Shown: positions 21-17,633, counted from the stretch's first letter. The stretch is DNA of 28,372 bases from Candidatus Nanobsidianus stetteri (GCF_003086415.1 NZ_QEFP02000010.1:1-28372), one strand, 5' to 3'. The notes: a model not told the origin generated them from the letters alone. Translations and numbers: made by a program.

Positions 21-620
21 CTAATTCTTCTTTACATTCTTCTTTAACTTTTTTGCTAATTCTTTAAAGTTTTTTTCATCTAATTTTCCATCAAACATTT
101 TTTTATCTCTATAAAAATTATAACCCCAAGTATCATTTATTATGTTAAGTGGTGATATGCCTTTTGTAGCATCTTCCAAGATACTTGTAAGCAAACCTAT
201 AAATACTAAAAACTCAAAAACCTTGTAAAGCTCTTTTTCATCCATATATTTTCCATATTTTTCCTTTATATCATTCCAAAACATTTGAAAAATAGGATCT
301 GATAGAAGTTTATTTAGTATACTCTCAAAACCAAATATATTTGCAGTTATTTGGATCTCTCCATCATTAAAAGGCGAATCATAAAGAAAAAGAGTAATAT
401 TTACACCCATATCCTTCTTATTATTATCATCATTATCATCATTTGTAATTCTATTTATAATCCTTGCTACTTTTTCTACAACCATAATTCTCTTAAAATA
501 TTCTATTATGTGTTTCGGAGATCCATAACTCATATATATTGTGTTTATAATTTCATTTATAAACTTTTCTAATTTTTCTTCAGATAAATATTTCATTGAA
601 GCATAACTCATATATACCAT
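21..620 (-). CDS. hypothetical protein (199 aa)
   Basis: Long ORF with non-repetitive, protein-like composition. It lies 126 nt downstream of the P-loop NTPase ORF on the same strand. No motif recognised. Confidence 0.45.
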   Translation of the reverse strand: MVYMSYASMKYLSEEKLEKFINEIINTIYMSYGSPKHIIEYFKRIMVVEKVARIINRITNDDNDDNNKKDMGVNITLFLYDSPFNDGEIQITANIFGFESILNKLLSDPIFQMFWNDIKEKYGKYMDEKELYKVFEFLVFIGLLTSILEDATKGISPLNIINDTWGYNFYRDKKMFDGKLDEKNFKELAKKLKKNVKKN

Positions 621-746
621 AGTATCTTCTACACTGGCTTTTTTAATAGCCTTTGCTATAAATACATATCCTAATGTATGTGGGTTTATTTGCAGTTTAA
701 AAGGTTAAAAATTAAAAATTTAGGTTATGATATATTTTTAGAGCCA

Positions 747-2063
747 TTAATGTAGTCTCTCATATAGTTGTGATCTTTTTTCAAGCGTTTCATGACAATG
801 CTTTAAGAAATTATAAATATAAGAATTTATAGAATAGATCTTAATTTTAGGACTTTCTTCATAAATTTCTTTTATGTATGTTGAGTTTTTATATATCTTT
901 CTTGTTTGTTTAATGGGAGGTTCCAGGTGTATATTTCCAATGTTTTGCAAAGCATCGAAATCTTTTTTATTGCGAATTTGGAAATCAAGTGGAGGGTTTA
1001 CTATATAAAAGCCTTTAGAGTCTACTTTATCAGTTATCCTATCAAAATTTTTATTTAGTTCAATTAGAATTCTTAAAAACAAGCGTTCTTGGGACTCTTC
1101 TATTTTAAGATCCTCTTCATTATCATAATAATGCTCTATTGATAAACTACAACATTTTATATCTTTATATGCTTTTCTTAGATCAGATATCTCATGTAAA
1201 ATTAATAACATTGGAAAGACATAATCAGGCTCAAATTTTGCTAAGATATTAATTTCGTCAATATTTTTTCGATTTTTTATGATATATCTCATAACTTCAT
1301 GGGCTTTATCTTCTCCATAAAATGCACCCCACAAGAAATCGACATCCTTATTATTGTAGTTAGCTTCATGATTTTTATTTAGCACATTTTTCACATAGCT
1401 TAAGTAAGTTTCTTCCATATTAGGTGTCTCATTACTGCCAATACTGATAGGTTCTTTCCATAAAATTATCAGTGAACGCATCCTCATTATAGCTCTTCGA
1501 GCTAATGATAATGAAAACTGATTATTAACAATATGTGCTAATCGATATTCTCCAATTTCCCATATTTTACTTAGTAATTTTCTTGTAGTACCGATGATAC
1601 CTCTATTAAATACACCAAATAAATGATAAGCATCATCTAATATAATAGGGTGTGGGAATGATTTACCTTTTTCTTCTATTTGTTTTCCATGTAGCATAAT
1701 TCTACCCAAGTAATCATAAGGTAAATAGCAAAAGTCTAAATATATAGAATTTTTAATTTGTTCATCAGTGTAACCTAGATTTTTCATAATATGCTTGTAA
1801 ATTGCTATAGATAATGTAGACTTGCCTGCACCAGGTCCACCTAGAATTAATAACCAATAATCTGTATCAAAAGCCGAACTTATTGAGTCAGTAATATACT
1901 TAGAAATGTCTCTTAAAAAGGTTATCGGATTTACAAAAATATCTGTTTTAATGTTCTGGGCTTTGGTAGATAATAATTTGAAAGCTTTTGTTTCTTTAAA
2001 TAAATTTAATATATCTATAGATGTTAATCTTTCTATATCCGAAATGTTTTTTATATCTACCAT
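747..2063 (-). CDS. P-loop (AAA+-like) NTPase of unknown function (438 aa)
   Basis: Walker A GGPGAGKST at residues 75-83. Walker B-like strand IILDDA at residues 140-145, an AAA+-like spacing. The C-terminal roughly 250 aa are unrecognised. Confidence 0.65.
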   Translation of the reverse strand: MVDIKNISDIERLTSIDILNLFKETKAFKLLSTKAQNIKTDIFVNPITFLRDISKYITDSISSAFDTDYWLLILGGPGAGKSTLSIAIYKHIMKNLGYTDEQIKNSIYLDFCYLPYDYLGRIMLHGKQIEEKGKSFPHPIILDDAYHLFGVFNRGIIGTTRKLLSKIWEIGEYRLAHIVNNQFSLSLARRAIMRMRSLIILWKEPISIGSNETPNMEETYLSYVKNVLNKNHEANYNNKDVDFLWGAFYGEDKAHEVMRYIIKNRKNIDEINILAKFEPDYVFPMLLILHEISDLRKAYKDIKCCSLSIEHYYDNEEDLKIEESQERLFLRILIELNKNFDRITDKVDSKGFYIVNPPLDFQIRNKKDFDALQNIGNIHLEPPIKQTRKIYKNSTYIKEIYEESPKIKIYSINSYIYNFLKHCHETLEKRSQLYERLH

Positions 2064-2113
2064 AATATATTATTATTTTGGAATTTTTAAATTTTTGTGA
2101 ATTTTATTTAAAG

Positions 2114-2340
2114 ATTTTTATAAAAAATATAACTTCGAACTATAAGTTAAGAAAAGTCGTTTCCTTTATACTTTCAAAAACTATTAAAGATACAGTTTCT
2201 TTTACTCCTTTAATTTCTCTTATCTTATCTAAAACTGCTTTTCCTAAACCCTCAACATCTTTTTCTCTAACCTTTGCAATCATATCCCAATCCCCAGCTA
2301 TTATATGGACTTCTTGAATTTCTGGTAAGTTTGCAATTTT
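2114..2340. repeat. 227-bp perfect direct repeat, copy A (identical to 5893-6119)
   Basis: Base-by-base comparison shows identity at a constant offset of 3779 nt. Identity ends sharply at 2340/6119 and decays upstream of 2114/5893. Confidence 0.95.
2140..2340 (-). pseudogene. truncated Lrp/AsnC C-terminal fragment (last 66 codons plus stop), duplicate of the 3' end of the gene at 5919-6377
   Basis: Lies inside the 227-bp repeat and corresponds to 5919-6119. There is no N-terminal HTH region and no start codon. Confidence 0.9.
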
Positions 2341-2371
2341 CTTAGAATCTTTTTATAATTAACGATAAAAT

Positions 2372-2503
2372 TTATTTTCCAGAAAGTATATTCATTAATT
2401 CTCTAAATCCTTCTAATTCTTCTTTAGAAATTCCATATAATCCAGCAACTACTAAATCAATTTCATCTTCAACTTTTTTAAGTTCTTCTTTTGCATTAAT
2501 ATT
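2372..2503 (-). pseudogene. orphan C-terminal fragment (NINAKEELKKVEDEIDLVVAGLYGISKEELEGFRELMNILSGK) resembling the C-terminal helix of Type II/IIG methyltransferase-specificity proteins
   Basis: About 90% nucleotide identity to 8442-8573. Only the last 43 codons of track ORF 2372..2683 are conserved between the two copies. The ExxIDxxVxxLYGIxxEE pattern is typical of R-M enzyme C-termini, judged from memory without a search. Confidence 0.5.
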
Positions 2504-2572
2504 TTTACAATAATCAGGTTTATTATTGGAATATATGCATTTTGCTAATTCATGATTTTTTAAATAAATCAA

Positions 2573-2760
2573 CAATAATATAAATACAAGAGAAATATTA
2601 GAGAATCTAAAAGAAAAATTAAAAGAAAAATCTGAATATTTAAATTTAGATATAAAAAAATAAATATTATATAATATTTGCAAAGAGTTTTAAAGAAAGA
2701 ATTAAAGATGATAAAACATATTTATTTGATTTAAAAGATTTAGAAAATATAATGTATTGA
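2573..2760 (+). pseudogene. degraded 3' tail of an archaeal ATPase/DUF234-type gene (paralogous to 15885-16060)
   Basis: Nucleotide homology to the end of the 15824..16060 ORF (..EKSEYLNLDIKK.. versus ..EKSEYINLDIKNKYYIIFAKSFKERIK..). It is broken by a frameshift and premature stops. Confidence 0.6.
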
Positions 2761-2871
2761 ATATAAGAATTAAATAATTTGTTATCGGTTAATTTCATAA
2801 TATTTTATTGGATATATTATAAAATTATCAATTAAAAAATTTTTAATTTGTTAGAATAATAATAAATTACT

Positions 2872-2903
2872 TTTGAAATAAAAATCTAATAAAGGCTAAA
2901 AAA
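2872..2903 (-). terminator. conserved T-rich 3' flank module of cassette P1
   Basis: Plus-strand TTTGAAATAAAAATCTAATAAAGGCTAAAA lies just below the stop codon. On the coding strand it reads ..TAGCCTTTATTAGATTTTTATTTCAAA with oligo-T runs. The module recurs after most cassettes. Confidence 0.45.
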
Positions 2904-2910
2904 GTTAAAT

Positions 2911-3564
2911 TTAGAGGACCCCTCGCTGCAAAGATACTTTCATATAAAATATACCCTCGTCATAAATAGCCGAATTACCATTTATACTTAATTCTGGAAT
3001 TGCTTTTTTTGGCTTATCTAGATCCATAGAGATATCTGTACGTGTATGATACTCAGGTAATTTTAGATATAATATTTTATGAATATCTAGAATTTTCTCT
3101 TTTATACTGTCTATGAAAGAAGTGATTTGATGAGAATATCTAAGTCTTTTATCATCATGATGAGGGCATTCAATATGATAAGGTGAATGTTGTGTGTCTA
3201 AAAGACACAGAAATTCTTTATCTTCATAAAGGTACATTATAATATCATTTTCACATAATATAAGTTCATTACTAAATTTCTTACAATACGAATATGCTAC
3301 TGTATTGGATTTTTTTATTTCAGATATATCAGTCTTTTCTTTTACATATTCATATATTTCATTAAATAATTCCTTTAGACCTTTTACATGATCTCTTATA
3401 CGATATTTTAATTCCCATATATTAAGGTTTTCCATTATCTCAAATATTTTTTCAGAGCTTTTATTTAATTGTTGATCGTATTTTTGACTTTTATCAGTTT
3501 CTTTTAGATGTTCCTCAATTATTTTCATTAAATCCTTTCTTCCATATAGCTGTTGGCTATCCAT
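2911..3564 (-). CDS. cassette-family protein P1 (217 aa; subtype B, 4-Cys; duplicated N-terminal module)
   Basis: MDSQQ start, a helical ..VKEKTDISEIK segment, and a Cys ladder C-x9-C-x15-C-x12-C. It has the conserved 5' and 3' flanks shared with the other cassettes. Confidence 0.8.
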   Translation of the reverse strand: MDSQQLYGRKDLMKIIEEHLKETDKSQKYDQQLNKSSEKIFEIMENLNIWELKYRIRDHVKGLKELFNEIYEYVKEKTDISEIKKSNTVAYSYCKKFSNELILCENDIIMYLYEDKEFLCLLDTQHSPYHIECPHHDDKRLRYSHQITSFIDSIKEKILDIHKILYLKLPEYHTRTDISMDLDKPKKAIPELSINGNSAIYDEGIFYMKVSLQRGVL

Positions 3565-3582
3565 ACTATTATACTATATAAA

Positions 3583-3596
3583 AGATTTGTAAATTT
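3583..3596 (-). promoter_or_regulatory. TATA-like promoter core of P1 (AGATTTGTAAATTT)
   Basis: A variant of the family palindrome, centred about 25 nt upstream of the ATG at 3564. Confidence 0.5.
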
Positions 3597-3870
3597 ATCT
3601 TATATTATAATCATGTAATTGTAATGGGCAAATATTTTAAAAATAAAATATCTATAATTATAAACTCAAAAATAAAAATTAGCAAATGAATAATTAAAGA
3701 TTATCCATATTTAAGTTCTATAGATAGTATATTAAATAATTTAAATATTAGAGCGTGATATAAAATTCTTGAAAATTAACGTATAGAATATAATAAGAAT
3801 TAAATAATTTGTTGTTATCAATTATTGAGCTAAATAGATTAGCATTAATATACTCTTTAATATAATTATT

Positions 3871-3901
3871 TTTGAAATAAAAAATCTAATAAAGGCTAAA
3901 A
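3871..3901 (-). terminator. conserved T-rich 3' flank module of cassette P2
   Basis: TTTGAAATAAAAAATCTAATAAAGGCTAAAA lies immediately below the stop at 3905. Confidence 0.45.
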
Positions 3902-3904
3902 TAG

Positions 3905-4576
3905 TTATGACTTAGGACGAAGATAACGGTACCAACGTATTGAAATTTTATATATACTATCTATATATTCAAATTTATGTCTACTTATACTTATTTTTGG
4001 ATTCTCTCGTATTCGCTTTTTTAAATCTATAGAAGCATCTGCGAATATATTCATATATTGATCGCCCATATTCGTAAGTTCTCTCGGATCTAATAATATA
4101 TCATCTAATATATTTAAAACTGATTTTTTTATACCTTCTGGGAAAGGACATTTTTGAAGAGGATCAGATAATATAAATGTCTTACCATCATAATCAAGGC
4201 ATTCAATTTTATAAGATGTTCGGTCTAAACTACACAAAATATGTACATTTTCATCTTCATCATATTTATAATGATGATAATAAATATATGTTAGAAGATG
4301 ATTGTATACACTCCTATTATAAATATCTGACGTAAGATAATTATATTCGGGTCTCATATATTCATTAAAAGGTTCATTAGCATCTTTATTATAATGCAAA
4401 CCTACGTATGCTTCGAGTCTTTTTGCTTCAGATATACCAGCCTTTTCTAGTGCTTTTTCAACCAATTCGTTTAATGAGTCCTTTAGTTCTTCTATATCAT
4501 ATACTACTCGTTCCTTAAGTTCTTCTATTAAATTAAATGTTTTTTTATAACTTTTATCCGGTTGTTGCTTGTTCAT
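3905..4576 (-). CDS. cassette-family protein P2 (223 aa; subtype A)
   Basis: MNKQQ start, IEELKDSLNELVEKALEKAGISE, a Tyr/Asn-rich insert, KIEC..DGKTFILSDPLQKCPFPEGIKKSVLNIL, NMGDQY and ENPKISI. Paralogous to P5 and P7. Confidence 0.8.
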   Translation of the reverse strand: MNKQQPDKSYKKTFNLIEELKERVVYDIEELKDSLNELVEKALEKAGISEAKRLEAYVGLHYNKDANEPFNEYMRPEYNYLTSDIYNRSVYNHLLTYIYYHHYKYDEDENVHILCSLDRTSYKIECLDYDGKTFILSDPLQKCPFPEGIKKSVLNILDDILLDPRELTNMGDQYMNIFADASIDLKKRIRENPKISISRHKFEYIDSIYKISIRWYRYLRPKS

Positions 4577-4593
4577 ATTATTACATTATATAA

Positions 4594-4606
4594 AAATTTT
4601 AAATTT
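4594..4606 (-). promoter_or_regulatory. TATA-like promoter core of P2 (AAATTTTAAATTT, 13-nt variant)
   Basis: Occupies the same position as the family palindrome, centred about 24 nt upstream of the ATG at 4576. Confidence 0.45.
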
Positions 4607-4702
4607 ATATTGTATTCTAATTATATAATTGTAATAAACAAAAAATATAAATTCAAAGATAAAATTGACGACTATATAATTATAGAATAATAATAAATCA
4701 CT

Positions 4703-4735
4703 TTTGAAATAAAAAAAATCTAATAAAGGCTAAAA
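4703..4735 (-). terminator. conserved T-rich 3' flank module of cassette P3
   Basis: TTTGAAATAAAAAAAATCTAATAAAGGCTAAAAA lies just below the stop at 4740. Confidence 0.45.
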
Positions 4736-4739
4736 ATAG

Positions 4740-5552
4740 TTATGACTTAAAAGAATCATAAAAGGGTGTGGTCACATCAGTATAATATCTGCCAAAGACC
4801 AAAATTAGCCTGGCCTTTAATGGACCTTTGTCATATTCAATTTCATAAGTATTGCTACTTGTTTTATGTGTACTTATTCTTGCATTCTCCATTGTCTGCT
4901 TGTTTAAATCCCTAGAAATCTCTCCATATATACGTATATACTTATATATCTCATCCATCTCCTTAAGTACAGGGTCTACTGTAGATAATGTATAATATAT
5001 ACCTTTAAATGGACCTATTATACTGTTTATATCGTTTATGGGAGAACTAGACTTGGGTAACTCAAATGCTGATTCAAAAATATAGCGAATACTATATTGA
5101 ATGCATCTAAATCTATCATAATAATCTCTTGAGTTTGAATAACACTCAATTATTTTAGTACTATAAGACTGTATTTTAATATAATGACTTTCACAGTGCA
5201 GGCCTCCGTAATCCTGTTTACTAAAAATCAAGTCTACTCTTGCATCATATATTCTTATTTCAGGTAGATTAGTCGCTTCTTGTACTTTTTTAACAATTTT
5301 GTCTAATGCTCCCTCTAGTTGCATTATAGGAAATCTTAATCCGCTATTTAACTCTGGTATTTTTTTAGAACTTTTATCAGTTTTTTCTAACCATTTATCA
5401 ATTCTTTTCCCTATATCAGATATTTTTTCAGAATTTTTATCTGATCTTTGATTAGATCTTTTACTTTTATCAGTTTTTTCTAGCCAGTCATAAACGCTTT
5501 TTAATATCTCAGATATTTTTTCAGATTTTTCATCTGATTGTTGATAGTCCAT
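4740..5552 (-). CDS. cassette-family protein P3 (270 aa from the conserved ATG; subtype C; internal tandem repeat)
   Basis: The track ORF starts at a GTG at 5561. The ATG at 5552 gives MDYQQ and sits in the conserved CCATACTA context used by the other copies. The motifs YGGLHC, IIECYSNS and RFRCIQYS are shared with P4. Confidence 0.8.
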   Translation of the reverse strand: MDYQQSDEKSEKISEILKSVYDWLEKTDKSKRSNQRSDKNSEKISDIGKRIDKWLEKTDKSSKKIPELNSGLRFPIMQLEGALDKIVKKVQEATNLPEIRIYDARVDLIFSKQDYGGLHCESHYIKIQSYSTKIIECYSNSRDYYDRFRCIQYSIRYIFESAFELPKSSSPINDINSIIGPFKGIYYTLSTVDPVLKEMDEIYKYIRIYGEISRDLNKQTMENARISTHKTSSNTYEIEYDKGPLKARLILVFGRYYTDVTTPFYDSFKS

Positions 5553-5572
5553 ACTACACACTATGTAGGAAA

Positions 5573-5586
5573 AAATTTATAAATTT
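5573..5586 (-). promoter_or_regulatory. TATA-like promoter core of P3 (perfect palindrome AAATTTATAAATTT)
   Basis: Centred about 27 nt upstream of the ATG at 5552. Identical 14-mers occur upstream of P4, P5 and P6. Confidence 0.55.
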
Positions 5587-5892
5587 ATCTTATACTATAA
5601 TTATATAATTGTAATAAATAAATATTTTTAAAAATAAAATATCTATAATTATAAACTCAAAAATAAAAAATTAATGACTAAATAATTAAAGATCAATCAA
5701 TATTAAAAGTAATTTGGTTAGATAAAAATAAACAGAACTTAATGTAAAAGCTAATACTATTCTAAGAATTTCTGATACTATTATATTTATCATTATTATC
5801 ACAATAATATAAGTAAAACATAAAAATGAATATTTTGACCATGTTGCTTTCTATAAAACCTATTTCACAGTAAAAATAAACCTTATTCAAAT

Positions 5893-6119
5893 ATTTTTAT
5901 AAAAAATATAACTTCGAACTATAAGTTAAGAAAAGTCGTTTCCTTTATACTTTCAAAAACTATTAAAGATACAGTTTCTTTTACTCCTTTAATTTCTCTT
6001 ATCTTATCTAAAACTGCTTTTCCTAAACCCTCAACATCTTTTTCTCTAACCTTTGCAATCATATCCCAATCCCCAGCTATTATATGGACTTCTTGAATTT
6101 CTGGTAAGTTTGCAATTTT
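5893..6119. repeat. 227-bp perfect direct repeat, copy B (identical to 2114-2340)
   Basis: Covers 26 nt downstream of the lrp stop plus the last 201 nt of the lrp CDS. Confidence 0.95.
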
Positions 6120-6377
6120 TTCTGCAACTTCTCTTTGTTTAATACCTGCAGAGGGATCATATTTTATTAAAACAAAAGCCAAAACATTTTTACCAATAGC
6201 TTTAGGATCTAAAATTGCTCTATATTCTTTTATTATTCCTGCATTTTCTAATCTCTTTATTCTAGCGAAAATTGTAGTCTCTCTCATTTCTGTAATTTGA
6301 GAAAGTTCTCTTAATGAAAGTTTGCAATTCTTCTGTAAAAGTGAGAGTAATTGTTTATCCTTTTCATCTATCTTCAT
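5919..6377 (-). CDS. lrp: Lrp/AsnC-family transcriptional regulator (152 aa)
   Basis: N-terminal HTH (LSLRELSQITEMRETTIFARIKRLENAGII) followed by a C-terminal AsnC/RAM-type effector domain. The length is typical for the family. Confidence 0.9.
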   Translation of the reverse strand: MKIDEKDKQLLSLLQKNCKLSLRELSQITEMRETTIFARIKRLENAGIIKEYRAILDPKAIGKNVLAFVLIKYDPSAGIKQREVAEKIANLPEIQEVHIIAGDWDMIAKVREKDVEGLGKAVLDKIREIKGVKETVSLIVFESIKETTFLNL

Positions 6378-6580
6378 AAAAAATTAATATTTTTTTAAAG
6401 TTTAAGTATTTTATTCAAAATACCTTTAAACTTTATGAAATTTATACATACTATATCCTATCAATTGGTAAATTAAATTTTGAAAAATATTCAATTTTTA
6501 TATAGAATTTAAGTAATTTTTTGAATACCTTTCAAAAAATTTTATAAAAAATTTAAGAACAGGTAATACAAATATTAACA

Positions 6581-7513
6581 ATGGCGGTAGAAGAAATGAT
6601 ATCTCACCTAAAAGAAATGAAGCCAATACTAAGAATACAGACAGTAGTACTGAAGGAAATGCAGTCATTCATGGTAGGAAGAGGCTTTGTACAACTACTA
6701 CCAATAGTAACATCAAAATTTACAGATCCATTGGCACCAGATCCAGGATCCAGCGTTATATTCACACCATCATTCGAGTATTATTCGCAGAAACTAGTAA
6801 TAACACAGAGTATGATTTTGCATAAGCAGCTATCCCTTATAGCAGCAGATAAAATATTTATATTCTCACCAAACGTTAGATTAGAAAAGAGTGAAAGAGG
6901 TAAAACAGGAAAGCATGCTTTTGAATTTACACAAATGGATTTCGAAATGGCATATGCAAAGATGAAGGATGTAATGGATTTAGTAGAAGATTTAGTAATA
7001 CATGTAATCAAAAAAGTTAAAGAAGAATGTAAAGAAGAATTAGATCTCTTAGGTAGAGAATTAAGAGTTCCTTCAAAACCATTCAAAGTTTATAGATATT
7101 CGGAAGTTTTAGAAAAATATGGTAGTGATGATGCTTTAAGTGAAAAAGAGAAAGATCCATTCTGGATTATTGATATAAAAAGAGAGTTCTATGATAAAGA
7201 AGATGAAGAACATCCAGGTCATTATTTAAACTATGATTTGATTTTGCCAGAGGGATATGGAGAAGTTTTATCTGGAGGAGAAAGAGAATATAAATATGAG
7301 AGAATTATGGAAAAGATGAAAGAATTAGAAAAAGAAGGTAGAGATTATTCATCATATAAAGACTATTTAGAAGTTGCTAAAATGGGATTATTAAAACCAA
7401 GTGCTGGAGGAGGAATTGGTGTTGAAAGATTATTGAGATTCTTAACAGGAAAGAGACATATAAAAGATGTTCAATTATTCCCAAGAATTCCTGGCGAAGA
7501 AGTAGTTTTCTAG
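6581..7513 (+). CDS. asnA: AsnRS-like class II synthetase core without anticodon-binding domain; probable archaeal-type asparagine synthetase A
   Basis: Class II motif-2-like FEFTQMDFEMAY and motif 3 GGGIGVERLLRFLTG, in a protein of only 310 aa. Divergent from an Lrp/AsnC regulator. Confidence 0.7.
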   Translation: MAVEEMISHLKEMKPILRIQTVVLKEMQSFMVGRGFVQLLPIVTSKFTDPLAPDPGSSVIFTPSFEYYSQKLVITQSMILHKQLSLIAADKIFIFSPNVRLEKSERGKTGKHAFEFTQMDFEMAYAKMKDVMDLVEDLVIHVIKKVKEECKEELDLLGRELRVPSKPFKVYRYSEVLEKYGSDDALSEKEKDPFWIIDIKREFYDKEDEEHPGHYLNYDLILPEGYGEVLSGGEREYKYERIMEKMKELEKEGRDYSSYKDYLEVAKMGLLKPSAGGGIGVERLLRFLTGKRHIKDVQLFPRIPGEEVVF

Positions 7514-7753
7514 ATTTTTCTTTAATAAATTTTTTATTTTTAATAAATATTTTAGAAAAATCAAAAAGGTTAGAAATTGCAATTTATTAAACTAGATAAT
7601 GAGAAAGGTTTATTAATAGAAAAATTTTTATATAAGTAAATACAAAATTTGATATAAGCTTTAGTATAGTATAGTTAAATGAATAATATTTAATTAAATA
7701 ATATAAAAAGTATTATCGACATAATAAAAGTTATAGATTATCTATATAAATGC

Positions 7754-8248
7754 TTATTTTGCATAGTTTAATGCACAACAGATTTGAGAAGGAAAAAGAA
7801 TATTATAAAGGGATAGTGCAATAATAATAAAAATAATATAAGCAAAAAAAGTCGCAAATGACATAAAAATAGCTACTCTTAAATTTACATTGGACAGAAA
7901 TTTATAAGCAATTAGATTTGTTATAAAAACCGAAATTAGAATTACTAAAATGACTGTAAATATTTCTAAGGTTATTATGGTTGCATCAATAGGGTATGAA
8001 GAATATATAAAGTTAAAGATAATTATTGTAAAAATAAAAATTATAAAAGATGATATTCCTGAAAGAGAAGTAATAGTCCAAGTTCTAGAAAATGATATAT
8101 TTAAATTAAAATAACTTTTAGCAAATGAATAAATAAGTTTTGAAAATATATATGAATATCCGATCCAACCTAACATAAAAGGTGACAAGAATATTAGAAG
8201 GTTTTTTACTGCAATAATTACTGATGTTATCATGCTTAAACTAGCCAT
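7754..8248 (-). CDS. hypothetical integral membrane protein (164 aa, about 5 hydrophobic segments)
   Basis: The ORF contains repeated stretches of 20 or more hydrophobic residues. No motif recognised. The AT-rich background makes Ile/Phe-rich ORFs less reliable. Confidence 0.45.
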   Translation of the reverse strand: MASLSMITSVIIAVKNLLIFLSPFMLGWIGYSYIFSKLIYSFAKSYFNLNISFSRTWTITSLSGISSFIIFIFTIIIFNFIYSSYPIDATIITLEIFTVILVILISVFITNLIAYKFLSNVNLRVAIFMSFATFFAYIIFIIIALSLYNILFPSQICCALNYAK

Positions 8249-8441
8249 TTTATAATATATTATTGCCTTATATATAAATATATTTTGAGGATTATTAGAG
8301 TGTTATTATTGTTATAATTGAAATATCTATGTCTATGAAGAATTTTATCAAAAATAATTTAGTGAGAGTAATATTATTTATTTATATTAATTGAATAAAA
8401 TTGGTTATGAAAAATATTTATGTTCTTATAATTAATAAAAT

Positions 8442-8573
8442 CTATTTTCCAGATAATATATTCATTAATTCTTTAAATCCTCCCAATTCTTCTTTAGAAA
8501 TTCCATATAATTCAGCAACTGCCAAATCAATTTCATCTTCAACTTTCCTAAGTTCTTCATTTGCATTAATAGT
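8442..8573 (-). pseudogene. orphan C-terminal fragment (TINANEELRKVEDEIDLAVAELYGISKEELGGFKELMNILSGK), second copy of the 2372-2503 module
   Basis: About 150 bp (8428-8575) aligns with 2355-2512. The upstream part of track ORF 8442..8648 overlaps the metallopeptidase gene and is not conserved. Confidence 0.5.
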
Positions 8574-8574
8574 T

Positions 8575-8925
8575 TTAAAGTAGTTTAGTTCTAAGATTAG
8601 ATTTTTGTATTGCACTATATATTTCTGTTTCATATTTAGTAATTTCATCCATACTATAAATAGAAAGAAGTTTATTTAGAAATTTTGCTCCATGACCTTT
8701 GGTGTTAGTTAATTTATGAATTACTTCATGAACTATAATATATGTAAGACAATCTTCACTAACATTTTTGAAAATATCTTCGTTTATTACAATAAGATCT
8801 TTTTCCCAATCATAATATGCTATCGCTCTAATTTTTTTAGTTAATATTTTAATTGAATCAACTTTTGTTAAATCTATTACTTTAGATTTTATATTTTCAA
8901 TATCAATTTTTGTTGTCATTTTCAT
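8575..8925 (-). CDS. small HExxH zinc metallopeptidase-like protein (DUF45/YgjP-like), last gene of the Type I R-M operon
   Basis: VHEVIHK (HExxH) followed by GHGAKF. It overlaps the hsdR 3' end by 23 nt. COG1451/DUF45 proteins are commonly linked to Type I R-M loci. Confidence 0.6.
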   Translation of the reverse strand: MKMTTKIDIENIKSKVIDLTKVDSIKILTKKIRAIAYYDWEKDLIVINEDIFKNVSEDCLTYIIVHEVIHKLTNTKGHGAKFLNKLLSIYSMDEITKYETEIYSAIQKSNLRTKLL

Positions 8926-11900
8926 ATAACCATCTAATTATCTGATCCTTTATTTTCTCAACTAATTCGACTTTAATATATCTGTCTTCTATTTTTATAT
9001 TTTTACAGTTCTTTACAATATCTATCTTTAATAGCTTTTCTAGCTCGCTTTCTTTGCTATCTATAATATATTTTGCATCTTTGAAAGATTTATTTTTTAT
9101 CATATCTTTTATCTTATTTAGAAAATCTGATAGCTTATTGAAATTTATTTCTTTACAAGATTCGCCAAATTCTTCAGTTAATGCTAATCTTATAGAATAT
9201 AGTATTTTATCTATATCATTCATTTTATTTCTATTTTCAGAATATTTCGTTATTTGATCATAAATTGATTTCAATTGACGTAATATCTCTTTAGTATCTT
9301 GTTTTCTAGCAATCCAGTCTTCTTCTAATTTATTTAATATTTCCGATACTTTTTTATAAAAAGGATCAATGTCTATATCTTCTTCTATTTTCTTATGTAT
9401 TACTAGAAAATATGCATATGTTTTATTTTTAATCTCTTTTTCAGATATTTCAGCCATTTTTTCTAAGATTTTATCATTAATAATTGCACTTTCATCTTCT
9501 TTAAATCTTTCAATTTCCGTTTTATCGTAGATCAAATCTAGTATTTCGTTGAGTAATTTATTTAAACCTTTTATTTTTTTATTTTGTTGACTATTTATTA
9601 ATCTTAATAAAATTTTAACTGTATCTATATCATCTTTATATATTATTTTAGTTGAGGAATTATTATATGGAGATAGAGAATTATAGAATTTTATAACTTT
9701 AACTAAACTATTTATTGTAGACTTTAAATTACTAATTTGTTTTGATAAATTTTCATCATATATAGAATCTAAGTTGTTGAAATAATAATAAAATCTTATT
9801 TTTCTTATTTTATCTTCATATTTTTTTATCCAATTTTCTGTCGATTTTATATCTCTTTTAAGTTCATCCAAATCTATACTTAAATTTTCTCCATTAACAT
9901 ATAATGATTTTAGATTATTTTTAACTTTATCAAAGCATTTCTTAAAATTCTCTTCTTCAGTATTTTCATCTTTTAGAGTAGTTTCTAATTCTTCTTCTAT
10001 ATTTTTTATATCTTTTTGTTGCGATAGCAATCTATTATATTTAATTAGTGTCTTCTTTAAATTTGGTAAAAGACCTATAGAATCTACAACTAATCCCGTT
10101 TCTTTTCCAGGGAAGGGTCTATTCACTCTTCCAATAGCTTGAAGTAATTTGTGACTATAAATTGGTTTATCTAAATACATAACTCTTAATTTAGGATAAT
10201 CAAAACCTGTAATAAGCATATCTGTTACTATTAAAATCCTTGGATCCGATGAATTCTTGAAGTTATCTATAATATTAGAATTAATTTCATCAAAATCTTT
10301 AATTCCGTATTTATTTCTTAATTCTTCCATATATTGTCTAATATCAGGATCTGTTTCATTATAATTATATGTCATTACTATTTCAGACCAATTTTTAGCT
10401 TGTTCTCCAAATGTTTCAATTAGATGTTTATCAAGATATCTTTTCATTAATACACATGCTTTTCTATTAGCCATTACTATCATAGCTTTAAATCTAAATT
10501 CTGGTATTTTAATATTAAAATCCTTTGATTTATTGTTTATATCTATCGTTTGTGTATCTTCTAAAATATGTTCTGTAATATATTTGGCCAATGCATCAAT
10601 TCTTTTTGGATTTAGTAGAAATACTTTTATTTCATTTATTATATTTTTTAACTGCTTATCAGAGATATTAATATTATCTTGTTCAAAATATTCACTAATA
10701 TCTTTTCCTTTTCTTTCATTTTTCAAATATTCTTCTATATATTTTTCAATTTCATTTTCATCTAATTGGAATCTTATACTATTTTCTCCTTCCTTTATAG
10801 ACTTATATATTATTGGTAATGTAGCCCCATCTTTAATTGAATCATTTATAGAATAGGCATCTAAATAAAATTCATTCAGATCTGGATAAGAAAATTCTTT
10901 CAGAGTGTTTTTATCTTCATTAAGTATTGGTGTTGCGGTAAAACCTATAGTTATAGCATTGGGAAATGCTAATCTTCTAACAGAAGCTAGTCTACCATAT
11001 TGACTTCTATGTGCTTCATCAATTAAGAATAATATTTCTTTTTTATTGGGAGCTCCTAATTTAAAACATTCTTCAATTTTATTCTTATCATTAAGTTCTG
11101 AACTCTTTATCTTTTCGTATTCTGAAGGATTTGATGTTTTAAGATAATCCAAATATTCATCTTTTAATTTACAAAGAAGATTAATTATTCCTTCTCTTTC
11201 TTCGTTTTCTAAATCTCCTTTTTGAAATTTTTGTATAGTTACTATATAAATTCCACGGGGAGCAGTTTTACCATTGGAAAATTCAGATTCTTTAATTTGT
11301 TTTATTAAATGATGAAGTTCAGAGATACTATTAATCTTAGTAATATTTTTATAATTAGTTAAAAGTTTATCATGTATTTTAGAAAAGGTATCTGAATGTT
11401 GCTTTTCTAGATCTTGTCTATCTACAACTATAAAAATTATAGGACTTCTATCTGAATAATTAAGTAAGAACTTGTAAGCTATAAAGAACATTGTATAAGT
11501 TTTTCCACTTCCAAGCCAATGCCAAATTAAACCTCTATTTTTATTCGATTTTTCATCTAGATATTCTTTTATTCTATTAAAAGATTTTTCTGCAGCTCTA
11601 TATTGATAATATCTGGCAGCTATTCTATAATAATTATTGTCAGATTTTATTACAAAGACATAATATTTTAAAAAATTTAATAAAGTAGTAGGATTTAAAA
11701 GATCATATATATTATCTTTTCCATCTATTTTCCAGATTTGTAGATTTTTTTCTCTAGGTTTATTATCATAATTTGGAAAAATAGGTACATAACCTTTTTC
11801 CTTACCAATTGCAAATCCTATATGAGTCATTTTGGCAAGCTCTGGGGCTTTTATTTCATATATAGAAAGTTGATTTAATGCTTCGTATTCGGTATCTGGA

Positions 11901-12367
11901 AGTTCTCTTTTTATTTCTACTAAAGCTAATGGAATACCATTTATAAATAATGTAAAATCAGGTTCAATAATATCTATACCTTTAAATTTTAATTCATGAG
12001 CATAAATAAATGAATTTTTTGATATATTATCATAGTCAATAAGTTTTAAATTAAGACTAGTAGATGGGTCTTCAGGATTATCAAAGGTTATACCATGTTT
12101 TATATAATCGGAAAATTCTGATAAAGTAGAATTTTGGATTTTTCTTTTTATTTCATTTAAAATCTTATTTATACTATTGTTAGATAATTTATTAAATATA
12201 TCCTTATTTATTTCTCTTATTTTTTTATCTAGTTCTTCCTCTATGATATATGAAGGAGATATACTATGTTCTTTAAGATCAGGATAAGAATTAGTAATAT
12301 TTTTCCATCCTAGCTTTTCGATATTCTTTATAAAGTGATTATGATCTACTGAAATCTCTAGTCTCAT
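8903..12367 (-). CDS. hsdR: Type I restriction enzyme, R subunit (1154 aa)
   Basis: N-terminal PD-(D/E)xK-like motif (IEPDFTLF..LALVEIKRE), helicase motif I LGSGKT and DEAH box LIDEAHRSQ. Its start overlaps the hsdS stop in a 4-nt ATGA. Confidence 0.92.
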   Translation of the reverse strand: MRLEISVDHNHFIKNIEKLGWKNITNSYPDLKEHSISPSYIIEEELDKKIREINKDIFNKLSNNSINKILNEIKRKIQNSTLSEFSDYIKHGITFDNPEDPSTSLNLKLIDYDNISKNSFIYAHELKFKGIDIIEPDFTLFINGIPLALVEIKRELPDTEYEALNQLSIYEIKAPELAKMTHIGFAIGKEKGYVPIFPNYDNKPREKNLQIWKIDGKDNIYDLLNPTTLLNFLKYYVFVIKSDNNYYRIAARYYQYRAAEKSFNRIKEYLDEKSNKNRGLIWHWLGSGKTYTMFFIAYKFLLNYSDRSPIIFIVVDRQDLEKQHSDTFSKIHDKLLTNYKNITKINSISELHHLIKQIKESEFSNGKTAPRGIYIVTIQKFQKGDLENEEREGIINLLCKLKDEYLDYLKTSNPSEYEKIKSSELNDKNKIEECFKLGAPNKKEILFLIDEAHRSQYGRLASVRRLAFPNAITIGFTATPILNEDKNTLKEFSYPDLNEFYLDAYSINDSIKDGATLPIIYKSIKEGENSIRFQLDENEIEKYIEEYLKNERKGKDISEYFEQDNINISDKQLKNIINEIKVFLLNPKRIDALAKYITEHILEDTQTIDINNKSKDFNIKIPEFRFKAMIVMANRKACVLMKRYLDKHLIETFGEQAKNWSEIVMTYNYNETDPDIRQYMEELRNKYGIKDFDEINSNIIDNFKNSSDPRILIVTDMLITGFDYPKLRVMYLDKPIYSHKLLQAIGRVNRPFPGKETGLVVDSIGLLPNLKKTLIKYNRLLSQQKDIKNIEEELETTLKDENTEEENFKKCFDKVKNNLKSLYVNGENLSIDLDELKRDIKSTENWIKKYEDKIRKIRFYYYFNNLDSIYDENLSKQISNLKSTINSLVKVIKFYNSLSPYNNSSTKIIYKDDIDTVKILLRLINSQQNKKIKGLNKLLNEILDLIYDKTEIERFKEDESAIINDKILEKMAEISEKEIKNKTYAYFLVIHKKIEEDIDIDPFYKKVSEILNKLEEDWIARKQDTKEILRQLKSIYDQITKYSENRNKMNDIDKILYSIRLALTEEFGESCKEINFNKLSDFLNKIKDMIKNKSFKDAKYIIDSKESELEKLLKIDIVKNCKNIKIEDRYIKVELVEKIKDQIIRWLYENDNKN

Positions 12368-13656
12368 TTTAGGTCACCTATTGCGATCGAATTTACCCTT
12401 ATCTTGCCCGTCATTAAAGCCGCTAATAATTTTTCTTTCAATTTCTTCATATAATCTAAATATTTTGTTTCAGTCTCAATTTTGTTATCGATTGTTGAAA
12501 GTATTTCTGCTATTTTCTTCTGTTCTTCTAATGGGGGTAGAGGTATCTTAATTGATTTTAATTTGGATGCTTGGATAGTTTTAATGGTAGTTTGTGATGA
12601 AATATTATCCAAATTTTTCTTAAAAAAATCTGATAGGAAAAACTGTTTAAAAAATGGAGGATAGCATCTTAAACGATTGAGCGAAATTTTCATTAAATTA
12701 GCCGTTATGTTTGCTCCTTCTAGAAATTTAGGAACTATAGCAACTTTTCCCAAAGTTCCTCGTACTGATAGAACAAAATCACCTTCATTTAAGATAGTTC
12801 TATAAAATCTTTTAGAAGTTTCTTTTGAAATAAATCTATATTTACTTAGATCGTCTTCAAGTTCTCCATTTTCTTTTATAAGTTCTGCTCTAACTTCCGG
12901 AACCCCTTCATTCATTCCTACATATTTAATATTGTAATAGGTAGGATACCTATATATATCTATAGCTATCTCTTCAAGCTTAACAATTTCCCAATTCTTT
13001 GGTATCTTTCCAATCTCTGTATCTTTAAATTCTTTATGCCATATTTTCCCAGTAATAAGTAAATTTAATGTTTTTTCTTTTAATATTTTTAGTTTTTCAA
13101 TTAAATTTGTTGTATCTATAATTATAGTATCTACAGTATTAAGAATTTCAACAATCTTTTTTTGTTCCTCTAATGGAGGGATAGGGACTGAGCTATTTAA
13201 AACTATTTCAAGTGTAAGATTGGGTTGAGTACTCTTTTTAATAAATTTACTCCAATAAGGTTTGAAGTATAGATACCAATAATATAAAAATTCTGTATCT
13301 ATAATATTCTTATTAGGTATTATTCCTACAATTGCTTGATTTGTCGTTACTGGTATTTTATTAATTGCAACAAATCCTATAGAACCATAAATTGTTAATA
13401 GTAAAGAATTCTCTGGAACTATCCAAGCATTAGAATTTTCTAATCCTTTTTCAGTAATGAATTCTTCAGTATTATATAGATACTTACTAGATTTCGTTAT
13501 ATCTTGTGCCTTTACAAATGGAATATTTCCGTTCCAATACTCGGGAACATTTGTTCTAGGTGTTCCTCCAGATTTTGCTTTTATTATAACATCTTTTAAT
13601 TTTCTTACTTCCCAATCTTTAGGAAATTTTATAAATTCATCATTATATTCACTCAT
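12364..13656 (-). CDS. hsdS: Type I R-M specificity subunit (430 aa, two target-recognition domains)
   Basis: Two TRD halves are each followed by a conserved helix: PIPPLEEQKKIVEILNTVD and PLPPLEEQKKIAEILSTID. It overlaps both hsdM and hsdR. Confidence 0.92.
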   Translation of the reverse strand: MSEYNDEFIKFPKDWEVRKLKDVIIKAKSGGTPRTNVPEYWNGNIPFVKAQDITKSSKYLYNTEEFITEKGLENSNAWIVPENSLLLTIYGSIGFVAINKIPVTTNQAIVGIIPNKNIIDTEFLYYWYLYFKPYWSKFIKKSTQPNLTLEIVLNSSVPIPPLEEQKKIVEILNTVDTIIIDTTNLIEKLKILKEKTLNLLITGKIWHKEFKDTEIGKIPKNWEIVKLEEIAIDIYRYPTYYNIKYVGMNEGVPEVRAELIKENGELEDDLSKYRFISKETSKRFYRTILNEGDFVLSVRGTLGKVAIVPKFLEGANITANLMKISLNRLRCYPPFFKQFFLSDFFKKNLDNISSQTTIKTIQASKLKSIKIPLPPLEEQKKIAEILSTIDNKIETETKYLDYMKKLKEKLLAALMTGKIRVNSIAIGDLK

Positions 13657-15205
13657 TTTTATTAACTATAATTCTAATTATCTCTTTCAATTCCTTTTCC
13701 TTTTCTTCCCTTTCTTTTTTAATCTCTTCTATATTTTTCCATAATTCTTTTATTTCATCTATACTTACAGAATTATTATTCTGAATTTTTGTAACATAAT
13801 TGGATACATTTAAATTGTAATCATTTTTTATTATTTCTTCTATGTCTACTACTCTAGAAAAACCAGGTATTGTTTTAAATTCTTTATATATTTCTACTAT
13901 TTTTTGTATATGTTCATTGCTTAGTTTATTTAATTTTCTAACTTCGAGATGTTTAACATAAAGATCTGTTGCATCTATAAAAAGAATTTTTCTTTTTCTA
14001 TCTTCTTGTTTTTCTTTATTAAATATTATTATTATTCCAGATGCTTGAGTATTATAAAATAATTTTTCTGGAAGTAGAATTATTGCTTCTATCAGATCAT
14101 CATTAACAATTTTTTCTCTGATTGCTTTTTCTTTTCCCTCTCTAAATAAAGCACCTTGATCTAGTATAACTCCAACTTTCTTTTTAGCATAATATAACAT
14201 CAACTGTATCCACGCCCAATCTGCAGTATTATTTGGGGGAAAGCCATATTTGTAAATTTTGCGTAAACTAATATCATTACCCAATATTTCTTCACCATAT
14301 CCATCTTGATTCCATGGAGGATTGGCTACAACATAATCAACTTTAAATTGTGAATTTTCATCAAACTTAAGCTTTTTTAGACTATCTCCTACCTGAATTT
14401 TTATTAAATTTTTTTCAATTCCATGTAATATAAAGTTTAATTTAGCTATTGCTGCCATATCTGGATTATATTCTTGTCCAAATAGACCAACTCTACTAAC
14501 TCCACCTTTTTCTTTTGTATATTTATAAGCTTCTATTAACATTGCTCCAGATCCCATGGCAGGATCTAATATATCAGACCCAGGTTCTGGGTCAATTAAT
14601 CTTATTAATAATTTAATTACTTCATATGGTGTATATACCTCTCCTTCTTTACCTTTGGTTGGAGCAAATTGAGCTAAAATATACATGTAAGCATCTCCTA
14701 TAATATCATAATCAACGTTAGAAAAATCCAACTTATCAAATATTCTTTTTATTTGATCGAGTCTGGCTTTATGTTCGCTTTCCAAATGTGAAATTCCTAA
14801 TTTATCTAATAGAGCTTTCATTAAATCTTTGCTTATAATATCAGGATTTAATTCAGCAAATTTTATTAAAGCATTTTGGAATTCTTCTAAATAATTACTT
14901 TTCTTAGTTATTTCTTTCCATGTTATTAATTCTCTATTATTTTCATCATACATCTTAAAATCAGAGTTTGCTATAATATAAGCTTCTTCTCTAGATAGTC
15001 CTTCTTCTTTAATTATTCGGTTAACTTCACTTTCATATCTATCACTTATGGCTTTATAGAAAAGAAATATTAATAGTGATCTATAATCTAAACCTGTTCT
15101 AATTAAATCAGCACCTTGCTTCAAAGTTGTAAATAAATCTTTTTTTGATAATTTAGTAGAATTATTTAAGTAATCATTAATTGTCTTTTCCATATATTTT
15201 ATCAA
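13649..15205 (-). CDS. hsdM: Type I R-M N6-adenine DNA methyltransferase subunit (518 aa)
   Basis: SAM-binding motif I DPAMGSGAML and catalytic motif IV VVANPPWN. It is the first gene of the overlapping hsdM-hsdS-hsdR operon. Confidence 0.92.
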   Translation of the reverse strand: MIKYMEKTINDYLNNSTKLSKKDLFTTLKQGADLIRTGLDYRSLLIFLFYKAISDRYESEVNRIIKEEGLSREEAYIIANSDFKMYDENNRELITWKEITKKSNYLEEFQNALIKFAELNPDIISKDLMKALLDKLGISHLESEHKARLDQIKRIFDKLDFSNVDYDIIGDAYMYILAQFAPTKGKEGEVYTPYEVIKLLIRLIDPEPGSDILDPAMGSGAMLIEAYKYTKEKGGVSRVGLFGQEYNPDMAAIAKLNFILHGIEKNLIKIQVGDSLKKLKFDENSQFKVDYVVANPPWNQDGYGEEILGNDISLRKIYKYGFPPNNTADWAWIQLMLYYAKKKVGVILDQGALFREGKEKAIREKIVNDDLIEAIILLPEKLFYNTQASGIIIIFNKEKQEDRKRKILFIDATDLYVKHLEVRKLNKLSNEHIQKIVEIYKEFKTIPGFSRVVDIEEIIKNDYNLNVSNYVTKIQNNNSVSIDEIKELWKNIEEIKKEREEKEKELKEIIRIIVNKNE

Positions 15206-15365
15206 TCTATTAAGGGTTTATAAAGATAAAAGTAATATTCATAATTAAAATAATTCTGCTCTAAAGATTAGAACATTATCCTATAGTTTTTATTGATATA
15301 AATTCTCTTATCTGATATGATCCACTATTTTATTATTGTTTAAATCTTTCTGAGAAAGAAAGTAA

Positions 15366-15554
15366 TTATTTGCATCAAAATTTATATCAAAATATAATGA
15401 ATATCAAGAAAGAGCAAAGAAATTATTAGAAAATGCATATCCTGAAATAAAGGATAAAGTAGAAATATTAGATGCAAATAAAATAAAAGGATTAAAAAAT
15501 ATACTAAGTAAATATGGAGATGAAATAAAGAAATTAATAAATTTGGGAAAGTAA
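15366..15554 (+). pseudogene. orphan protein-like C-terminal fragment without a start codon (..NEYQERAKKLLENAYPEIKDKVEILDANKIKGLKNILSKYGDEIKKLINLGK*)
   Basis: The frame is open from the stop at 15363 to the TAA at 15552-15554. Composition is charged and non-repetitive, but there is no ATG, GTG or TTG. The track's antisense ORF 15382..15591 is low-complexity. Confidence 0.3.
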
Positions 15555-15677
15555 ATATTAAGATCATACAATTTTTTAGTCCTTTAAACATATTATCTTA
15601 AGCTATAGATTTACATTATAAAGGGTAATTTAAACGATAATAAACTTTATATATGTATAATTACAATTGGTATAATT

Positions 15678-16060
15678 ATGATTATACAAAATTTCAAAGA
15701 TAGAAAAGAAGAATTAACCTAGGATATGTTTTTGAAGATATAGCAAAACAATTTTTAATAAAAAGCAAATTATTTAAATTTACAAAAATTGGAAAATGGT
15801 GGTATAAAGATAAAGAAATAGATTTGGTTGCATATAATGAAAATACAAAAGATATATATTTTATAGAATGTAAATATTCTGATAATATAAATGCAAAAGA
15901 AGTATTGGAAGATTTAAAAGAAAAATCTGAATATATAAATTTAGATATAAAAAATAAATACTATATAATATTTGCAAAGAGTTTTAAAGAAAGAATTAAA
16001 GAGAATAATTTACATTTATTTGATTTAAAAGATTTAGAAAATATAATATATCGAATATAA
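15678..16060 (+). pseudogene. gutted archaeal ATPase (Arch_ATPase/DUF234-type) gene: 14 N-terminal codons joined out of frame to the C-terminal DUF234-like tail
   Basis: MIIQNFKDRKEELT* (15678-15722) resembles the F-x-[DN]-R-x-x-E-L start of archaeal ATPases. From 15722 another frame reads GYVFEDIAKQFL..IGKWWYKDKEIDLVAY..FIECKYSD.., which is DUF234-like. The P-loop core is absent. Confidence 0.6.
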
Positions 16061-16167
16061 GAATTAAATAATTTGTTGTTATCAATTAATTTCATAATAT
16101 TTTATTAAATATTTTGCAAAATCATCAATTAAAAAATTTTCTAATTTGTTAGAATAATGTAATTATT

Positions 16168-16197
16168 TTTGAAATAAAAATCTAATAAGGGCTAAAA
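16168..16197 (-). terminator. conserved T-rich 3' flank module of cassette P4
   Basis: TTTGAAATAAAAATCTAATAAGGGCTAAAA lies below the stop at 16210. Confidence 0.45.
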
Positions 16198-16209
16198 AAT
16201 TATAGCTTA

Positions 16210-16758
16210 TTAATAATATTGGTAGTGTATATTAATATTAGGTTCTTCCTTTCCATGTCTAGAAGCAGTTACTGTTATACGCATTCTTTGCTGATCACCC
16301 ATATCTGTAAATGCTTCTGGCTTTGATACACCTAATGCAATTAGAACTAAATATTTCATACCATCTAGGAAATTAGCGATTTGGGGCAAATCAGATAATT
16401 CAAATGATGACTTACTGCTATAATGAGTGCAGCGAAGTTTATTAGGTGAAAATGTAGAGTTCGAATGACATTCAATTTCATCCTTGTCTTTTAGAGAATT
16501 AAGAACGTATAATGTAAAATCATAGTTATCGCACTGAATACCTCCATACATACCTTTACGACAATCCAAACTACCTGCTAAAGAGTATCCTCTCACCCCA
16601 AATTCTTTTATTCCAAAGTCGTTGGTAGCCTTTTCTTTCACATATGCAGCCGTTCCTAGTAATAAGCTATCTAGTTGGCTTCCAATAAGTTGTAACCCTT
16701 TATTAATTTTTTCTCCCTGTATTTTTTCAGGTTCTTTATATAGTTGTTGGCCGTCCAT
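16210..16758 (-). CDS. cassette-family protein P4 (182 aa from the conserved ATG; subtype C, 4-Cys)
   Basis: The ATG at 16758 gives MDGQQLY in the conserved CCATACTA context; the track start at 16770 is less likely. Cys ladder C-x9-C-x20-C-x12-C. The motifs YGGIQC, EIECHSNS and LRCTHYS are shared with P3. Confidence 0.8.
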   Translation of the reverse strand: MDGQQLYKEPEKIQGEKINKGLQLIGSQLDSLLLGTAAYVKEKATNDFGIKEFGVRGYSLAGSLDCRKGMYGGIQCDNYDFTLYVLNSLKDKDEIECHSNSTFSPNKLRCTHYSSKSSFELSDLPQIANFLDGMKYLVLIALGVSKPEAFTDMGDQQRMRITVTASRHGKEEPNINIHYQYY

Positions 16759-16777
16759 ACTATATATCATATGAGAA

Positions 16778-16791
16778 AAATTTATAAATTT
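16778..16791 (-). promoter_or_regulatory. TATA-like promoter core of P4 (AAATTTATAAATTT)
   Basis: Perfect 14-bp palindrome centred about 26 nt upstream of the ATG at 16758. Confidence 0.55.
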
Positions 16792-16930: not shown

Positions 16931-16935
16931 AATAG

Positions 16936-17613: not shown

Positions 17614-17633
17614 ACTATTACATTATATAAGAA

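Follow-up and report, generated by a model that had tools for sequence, protein, structure and literature searches.

A perfect 227-bp direct repeat of the lrp 3′ end in Candidatus Nanobsidianus stetteri, probably homogenized by gene conversion within an old segmental duplication

The 28,372-nt sequence NZ_QEFP02000010.1 (assembly GCF_003086415.1) of Candidatus Nanobsidianus stetteri, hereafter the window, contains two identical copies of a 227-bp sequence from the 3′ end of lrp, a gene predicted to encode an Lrp/AsnC-family regulator. One copy (R, 5893–6119, minus strand) lies within the intact gene and its terminator region, and the other (R′, 2114–2340, minus strand) is a truncated copy; the DNA between them (2341–5892) carries an array of three cassette genes, array 1. 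Our best explanation, to which we give a probability of a little below 0.6, is an old segmental duplication that has decayed and in which the lrp tail was later homogenized by gene conversion, with no site-specific recombinase involved. R′ would represent the far end of an old local duplication. Either a tandem duplication or, with the same outcome, homologous recombination in a Campbell-type insertion-duplication could have produced it, and the ancestral unit would have consisted of lrp, asnA, (a membrane gene), a Type IIG methylase gene, a DUF234 ATPase gene and a cassette array. In the left copy, one deletion would have removed the stretch between lrp codon 85 and a point shortly after the methylase stop codon, and another would have run from the methylase body into the 5′ part of the DUF234 gene, leaving the lrp tail, the methylase tail, the DUF234 tail and cassettes P1–P3. 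The duplication and the deletions would predate the divergence of the sampled strains. Later, in this genome, gene conversion from the intact lrp would have overwritten the lrp tail and left the two 227-bp copies without differences, and the identical copies may now be a substrate for RecA/RadA-type recombination, leading to deletion of array 1 or its excision as a 3,779-bp circle.

The window is the entire contig C7 of a short-read assembly (G000; 449 kb in 20 contigs, 25% guanine-plus-cytosine content, 66% complete). The nearest genomes found (G003, G004, G007, and G008) belong to the same genus and showed about 91% DNA identity at the lrp locus. In addition, 80 metagenome contigs with lrp orthologues were collected, 75 of which have enough sequence after lrp to be classified; the contigs of G004 and G007 are designated L013 and L014. 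The intact lrp (5919–6377, minus strand) encodes 152 amino acids (aa) with HTH_AsnC-type and AsnC_trans_reg domains in Pfam, and its orthologues in the four genomes and the 80 contigs are 91–100% identical. An exact look-up of the Lrp protein gave six independent metagenome contigs, among them L020, a contig from an independent Joint Genome Institute metagenome (3300033830).

The repeat and the bracketed DNA

A repeat search, a pairwise alignment and a BLASTN search of the window against the assembly all showed 2114–2340 to be identical to 5893–6119 (227 of 227 positions), in agreement with an earlier reading made from the sequence alone (hereafter the sequence-only reading). As described there, the repeat comprises the last 201 nt of lrp and 26 nt downstream, which fits the open reading frame (ORF) at 5919–6377, and the alignment showed identity to end abruptly at 2340/6119. 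The partial similarity reported beyond the other end (2101–2113 versus 5880–5892) was found as well, with 9 of 13 positions matching and each copy keeping the version of its own flank type; the extended match (2104–2340 versus 5883–6119) showed 99.2% identity over 237 nt. The same reading had called the perfect identity conspicuous next to the other repeats of the region, rightly so, since the other paralogous modules of the window are only 88.8% and 89.6% identical (0 of 227 differences in the repeat versus 49 of 460 in the modules; Fisher p = 1.5e-9). Its list of the bracketed content was correct for a methylase tail, a DUF234 tail and the cassettes P1–P3, but these are not all that is there, for the bracket also holds a 5′ remnant of a gene here called Z.

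By tblastn, R′ matched Lrp residues 85–152. It is a pseudogene fragment without a usable start codon. A stand-alone RAM-domain protein encoded by R′ was considered and rejected, the open frame being 70 codons long with no start codon that would yield at least 50 aa.

The left and right modules of the window were shown to share order and orientation: lrp tail, methylase tail, DUF234 tail, and cassettes. The methylase tails (2347–2507 versus 8420–8577) showed 88.8% identity and the DUF234 tails (2613–2907 versus 15908–16202, within the wider pair 2575–2907 and 15882–16202) 89.6%, and the bracketed cargo as a whole is colinear with 8420–17900 of the same contig and thus not of a mobile type. The left methylase tail is the 3′ end of a Type IIG (Eco57I/MmeI-like) methylase-endonuclease gene together with 31 nt downstream (2341–2576, minus strand; stop codon at 2372–2374). 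It corresponds to the final 227 nt of the methylase gene of G007 with the bases downstream; L014 6779–7007 matched 2576–2350 of the window with 93.5% identity, and Eco57I/MmeI-type domains were found by Pfam in the intact orthologue from G004. The left DUF234 tail comprises the last ~330 nt of a DUF234/ATPase_2 gene (2575–2907, plus strand), of which G007 has an intact version (442 aa). An old deletion probably formed the junction at 2340/2341, which joins lrp codon 85 to a point about 31 nt beyond the methylase stop, and the fusion of the methylase and DUF234 tails at about 2575/2576 would be a second deletion.

On the right, the methylase-tail paralogue (8420–8577, minus strand) adjoins a SprT-like gene and a Type I restriction-modification operon (8575–15205), and cassette array 2 comes after the DUF234-tail paralogue (15720–16202, plus strand), which is longer than its left counterpart. 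The two sides were not cut at the same points: the methylase tail extends to 2576 on the left but only to the position corresponding to 2507 on the right, and the right DUF234 tail begins about 190 nt earlier than the left one. This suggests that the copies decayed independently after the duplication.

The order in G007, in window orientation, is NTPase gene, lrp, AsnA-like gene, a gene for a 1121-aa methylase, a gene for a 442-aa ATPase_2/DUF234 protein, and cassettes. More generally, G007, G004 and L017 have lrp, asnA, an intact methylase gene and an intact or remnant DUF234 gene in this order, in G007 followed by the cassettes; the methylase gene is intact in G004, L017, L028–L030, L067, and L073 as well. 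Since these strains show the genes intact and in order, the bracketed debris is considered to derive from neighboring genes. Right of the intact lrp in this genome, the SprT-like gene and the Type I restriction-modification operon stand where the methylase and DUF234 bodies were.

Age of the duplication and alleles of the repeat

The structure of L020 bears most directly on the age of the duplication. In window orientation, this contig contains an intact Z, flank2′, an lrp tail, a methylase tail, a DUF234 tail, a P1-like cassette, a P3-like cassette, a Z remnant with flank2 (the DNA next to the intact lrp, see below), and lrp. It has the 2340/2341 junction (39 of 40 nt), and both deletion junctions are present in a colinear alignment to 2104–3649 of the window. 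Its direct repeat, however, is 431 bp long, extending from inside Z to inside lrp, and its two copies are 90.3% identical, with about 10 differences within the 227 nt that are free of differences here (0/227 versus 10/227; p = 0.002). G004 has a decayed relic of the lrp 3′ end 2.9 kb beyond lrp (L013, 8130–8297), consisting of 128 nt at 88% identity and about 50 nt similar to flank2. The interval between this relic and lrp contains two genes for multi-pass membrane proteins (313 and 414 aa) and not cassettes; Pfam assigned no families to these two ORFs, which by sequence are membrane proteins and not recombinases. A tblastn search for lrp fragments over 90 loci gave only L020 and G004, many of the contigs being too short to tell. 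DUF234-tail debris at the far end of the lrp-proximal array was found in at least 10 further contigs, and L038 keeps the methylase tail too, without the lrp tail.

Shared junctions with repeats diverged to about 90% identity in L020, and paralogues of about 90% identity here, indicate that the duplication is old, probably about as old as the divergence of the sampled strains. The sequence-only reading had looked to relatives with the same structure but diverged copies as the sign of an old duplication, and L020 was found to be of this kind and, more loosely, G004. As the second of its two options, that reading had proposed a recent duplication or gene conversion event: a recent duplication is contradicted by the junction in L020 with its 90% identical repeats, and a recent conversion has become the best reading. 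The diverged copies in L020 argue against a young insertion of the att type and leave the perfect identity in this genome unexplained.

The alleles within the repeat suggest an explanation. To the left of R′ lie a gene for a P-loop nucleoside triphosphatase (NTPase; 747–2063) and a short spacer, flank1 (2064–2113; both on the minus strand), and the DNA to the left of R, identified by strain comparison as the downstream spacer of lrp together with the 5′ remnant of Z, is designated flank2 (5696–5892, 197 nt, minus strand). The NTPase gene with flank1 was found directly downstream of an intact lrp in G007, L027, L083, and L095. Just after the stop codon, both copies of the repeat in this genome carry CTTCGAAC. 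All four NTPase-flank strains carry AATCTCTAC or a near variant, not CTTCGAAC, and CTTCAAAC is carried by five contigs with flank2-type or other flanks. Although R′ adjoins the NTPase-type flank, it shows, as little as 19 nt in from the boundary, the allele of the intact lrp in the same genome. Sharing a derived allele with its own lrp, unlike its positional orthologues, argues for gene conversion from lrp into the fragment. Moreover, the identity tract is shorter than the homology, which continues into the 13 flank-specific nt, and a tract ending within a longer region of homology is what would be expected for a conversion tract. This points to the perfect identity being secondary, a recent conversion of the fragment by lrp being the best reading; the direction and the recency of this event are what we infer from the alleles. 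The left flank of the fragment, NTPase in this genome and Z in L020, requires at least one further exchange at this place.

Gene conversion between duplicated segments (concerted evolution) is a familiar process in bacteria and archaea, where it affects rRNA operons and duplicated genes. As in those cases, two paralogous copies are identical here and share a derived allele, with the neighboring modules and the L020 pair diverged by about 10%, and the tract of identity stops inside a slightly longer homologous region. Unlike in those cases, one copy is a non-functional fragment of 227 bp with no apparent selection for identity, the tract fills an island of homology between unrelated DNA, and the identity is that of the assembled sequence.

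Several points weigh against an old duplication followed by conversion. A conversion tract would have had to take in the whole of a 227-bp island lying between non-homologous DNA, which is a small target. Both the order A-R-B-R-C and the identity within the central ~117 nt depend on an assembly graph with k = 55, where the repeat is probably a single edge traversed twice. A single clean duplication also simplifies a region that is a mosaic, as in L018, where Z lies between lrp and the array, and pieces of the methylase tail were found directly after lrp in about 9 contigs. Finally, the methylase- and DUF234-tail identities across strains all fall between 84 and 95% without clear grouping, and they do not separate orthologues from paralogues, so that the age and the order of events are probably constrained only roughly.

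Other routes to the same structure

Campbell-type insertion-duplication and tandem segmental duplication with subsequent decay are both known processes, and the locus resembles their products in that extra DNA lies between direct repeats running from inside lrp to, in L020, inside Z, with each gene present once intact and once truncated and with an insert homologous to the adjacent chromosome. It differs from a simple case of either in having the NTPase gene as left flank here and Z in L020, and the end product fits both routes. A recent version of the Campbell-type route would be the homologous integration of an array circle with one lrp tail, e.g., from an L020-like chromosome, into an NTPase-type locus (orf199, NTPase, lrp). 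The repeat would then be the exact stretch common to circle and target, and its boundaries do coincide with the limits of homology, the left one with the divergence of flank1 and flank2 and the right one with the old junction of lrp and methylase tail; NTPase-type empty sites in four other strains and the different array content of strains with identical Lrp also fit. However, a crossover between differing lrp tails gives reciprocal hybrids and not identical copies, so that conversion or identical parents would still be needed, and all known NTPase-type strains have a different allele 19 nt inside the boundary. A circular form was not seen, no contig reading from a cassette through flank2, R and methylase tail to an outer-side cassette, and the segment is without replication or transfer functions. 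Although it survives best among the alternatives, we regard recent integration of a circle as unlikely.

An effect of the assembly was also considered. A final k of 55 was inferred for the de Bruijn assembly from exact 55-nt overlaps at many contig ends, and is thus smaller than the repeat, which could be a single edge with a loop (2341–5892), the contig being the only linear path through this loop. The true state might be a chromosome reading 2113-R-6120 and a free 3,779-bp circle, two joined strains, or repeat copies whose central differences were merged. Such errors are made more plausible by the state of the assembly (66% complete, 20 contigs), by metagenomes from the same sources in which several strains with one and the same Lrp but differing flanks occur together, and by five contig ends, the left end of C7 included, which connect to a 55-mer in inverted orientation at a distance of a few kb and suggest foldback chimeras. 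Positions 1–55 of the window are the exact reverse complement of 7009–7063 within the AsnA-like gene, a k = 55 graph link that lies outside the repeat and truncates a 199-aa ORF (orf199, 21–620), the homologue of which in L083 runs beyond the equivalent of position 49. In four other contigs of the assembly (C10, C12, C14, and C18), both ends are joined to one 55-mer in opposite orientations. The inverted end links look like foldback chimeras in the library (e.g., from whole-genome amplification) or unresolved inverted repeats, and the link at 1–55 bears on how far the assembly is trustworthy.

Against an assembly effect, all four junctions of the structure were found in other assemblies: flank1/R in G007, L083, and L095, R/methylase tail in L020, flank2/R in more than 40 contigs, and R with the 5′ part of lrp everywhere. 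L020 shows the integrated form unambiguously, its repeats being different from each other. Since L020 shows this form and all four junctions occur elsewhere, integration is much more likely than a free circle. As to the identity itself, the k = 55 assembly (bulge removal) could have created it in the central ~117 nt but not in the 55 nt next to either end, because copies that differ within 55 nt of a repeat boundary cannot merge in such a graph. By this graph logic, which is our own, at least 110 of the 227 nt would be truly identical; about five (five or six) differences are expected in these outer zones at an L020-like divergence, and none is present. The 55-mers that join flank1 to CTTCGAAC must exist in the reads, and as this link lies within one 55-mer, a simple chimera with a typical NTPase-type strain is excluded and a strain-chimeric join at the repeat is weakened in general. 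Taken with the points in its favor, an assembly effect is judged improbable.

Archaeal integrated elements of Sulfolobales, Thermococcales, and Methanococcales, which use a tyrosine recombinase, have attL and attR sites at gene 3′ ends, and the first option of the sequence-only reading, an att-like insertion with a regenerated 3′ end, would place the present locus among them. The likeness is a direct repeat of a gene 3′ end around extra DNA, an intact target gene (lrp at 5919–6377), empty sites in relatives, and DNA after lrp that differs between strains; the differences are the lack of an integrase or any mobile gene, a long repeat of variable length, and a cargo of decayed chromosomal genes and cassettes. 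The absence of an integrase from the window, already stated in that reading, was confirmed: Pfam showed no recombinase domain in any ORF of 21–8925, and a PF00589 search of the whole assembly gave a single match on another contig (C3:7171–7629), in a 279-aa ORF that is probably XerA. No mobile-element genes (integrase, rep, viral, or plasmid) were found in the bracket or the window, no tRNA gene was found in the window, and no relatives of the Lrp or NTPase proteins were found in a collection of viral contigs. PADLOC gave only P-loop-level noise for the NTPase, orf199, two cassettes, and the SprT-like ORF. The repeat differs in length between carriers (227 bp here, 431 bp in L020, and ~128–180 bp in G004), only the inner boundary is common with L020, and this boundary adjoins a fragment of a neighboring gene. 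With a cargo that is colinear with the adjacent region, an integrase-mediated element whose attL and attR are the repeats and which brought along a replacement 3′ end of lrp is therefore very improbable, and the first option was not borne out.

Natural variation after lrp

The empty site (2113 joined to 6120), for which the sequence-only reading had proposed a check, was found in G007, L027, L083, and L095, in exactly the form of 2113 joined to 6120 through one copy of the repeat, with lrp directly followed by the NTPase gene. The flank2 type has its empty form as well: in L018, G004, L030, and L044, an intact Z follows lrp. This natural variation agrees with the proposal that array 1 could be lost through the repeats, and we infer that the array-free sites may have arisen by recombination between them. 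The variants fit gain as well as loss of an array by recombination at lrp tails, and either state may be ancestral.

The DNA after lrp (5880–5915 and the same site in L013–L102) was found to be hypervariable. Among the 75 informative contigs, 41 have flank2 (Z), 3 the NTPase flank, 6 a sequence like the methylase tail, and 25 other sequences. The point of divergence is a nearly invariant lrp terminator motif, ATTTTTATAAAAAATATAA, just after the stop codon, and the conserved backbone resumes at a gene for a 327-aa protein and one for a 450-aa class II aminoacyl-tRNA synthetase. In L042, L049, and L055, the last few methylase codons and the region downstream of them lie directly about 15 nt after the lrp stop, which is a third kind of juxtaposition.

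The remnant of Z in the window has about 45 codons and ends in a stop (about 5713–5826, minus strand); the full protein is a multi-pass membrane protein of 410 aa, and the gene is intact beside lrp in G004, L018, L030, and L044. Array 1 occupies the expected place of the Z body, both here and in many contigs. It consists of the cassette ORFs P1 (2911–3564), P2 (3905–4576), and P3 (4740–5561), all on the minus strand and of the same family as those at 16210–22649. Cassette content varies among contigs that encode the identical 152-aa Lrp: in L021, P1 and P2 (98% identity) precede other cassettes, the sets of L019 and L020 are limited to P1-like and P3-like cassettes, and L017 and L022 have other members. 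In this varying content, as in its family membership, array 1 resembles what has been proposed as shuffling cassettes flanked by promoters and terminators; the lrp-tail repeat, however, is no cassette flank and lies at the outer edge of the duplicated block in which the array is carried.

Next to lrp, the AsnA-like gene (6581–7513) is divergent from it, on the opposite strand. For the NTPase protein, an exact look-up gave no match on record. The Type IIG methylase (1114–1157 aa) and the DUF234 ATPase are encoded intact in G007, G004, and several contigs, with only 3′ tails remaining in this genome, and the SprT-like gene and Type I restriction-modification operon in their place look like a swap of defense genes at a fixed site (8420–16202 versus 2070–6985 of L014 and 13751–17137 of L013).

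A more speculative extension, to which we give little credence, is that arrays move between chromosomes without a dedicated recombinase, being excised as a circle through the lrp 3′ ends and re-entering any chromosome with an lrp tail; repeated cycles would keep the copies identical, and the repeat would act as a “homology att site.” If true, this would allow exchange of a hypervariable protein repertoire within the population.

The structure is known in kind and ordinary, and is useful as a marker of recombination. For annotation, it is a warning that a perfect repeat of a gene end around extra DNA need not be an att site. For the organism, it allows events to be dated and ordered at a recombination hot spot of a very small, host-dependent archaeal genome: an old duplication would have seeded a second cassette array beside lrp, the block would have decayed differently in each strain, and 227 bp would have been homogenized recently in this one. 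Such a history would be evidence, read directly from the sequence, that homologous recombination and gene conversion are active in a reduced genome, and recombination between the repeats offers a testable route by which a whole array of fast-evolving genes may be gained or lost.

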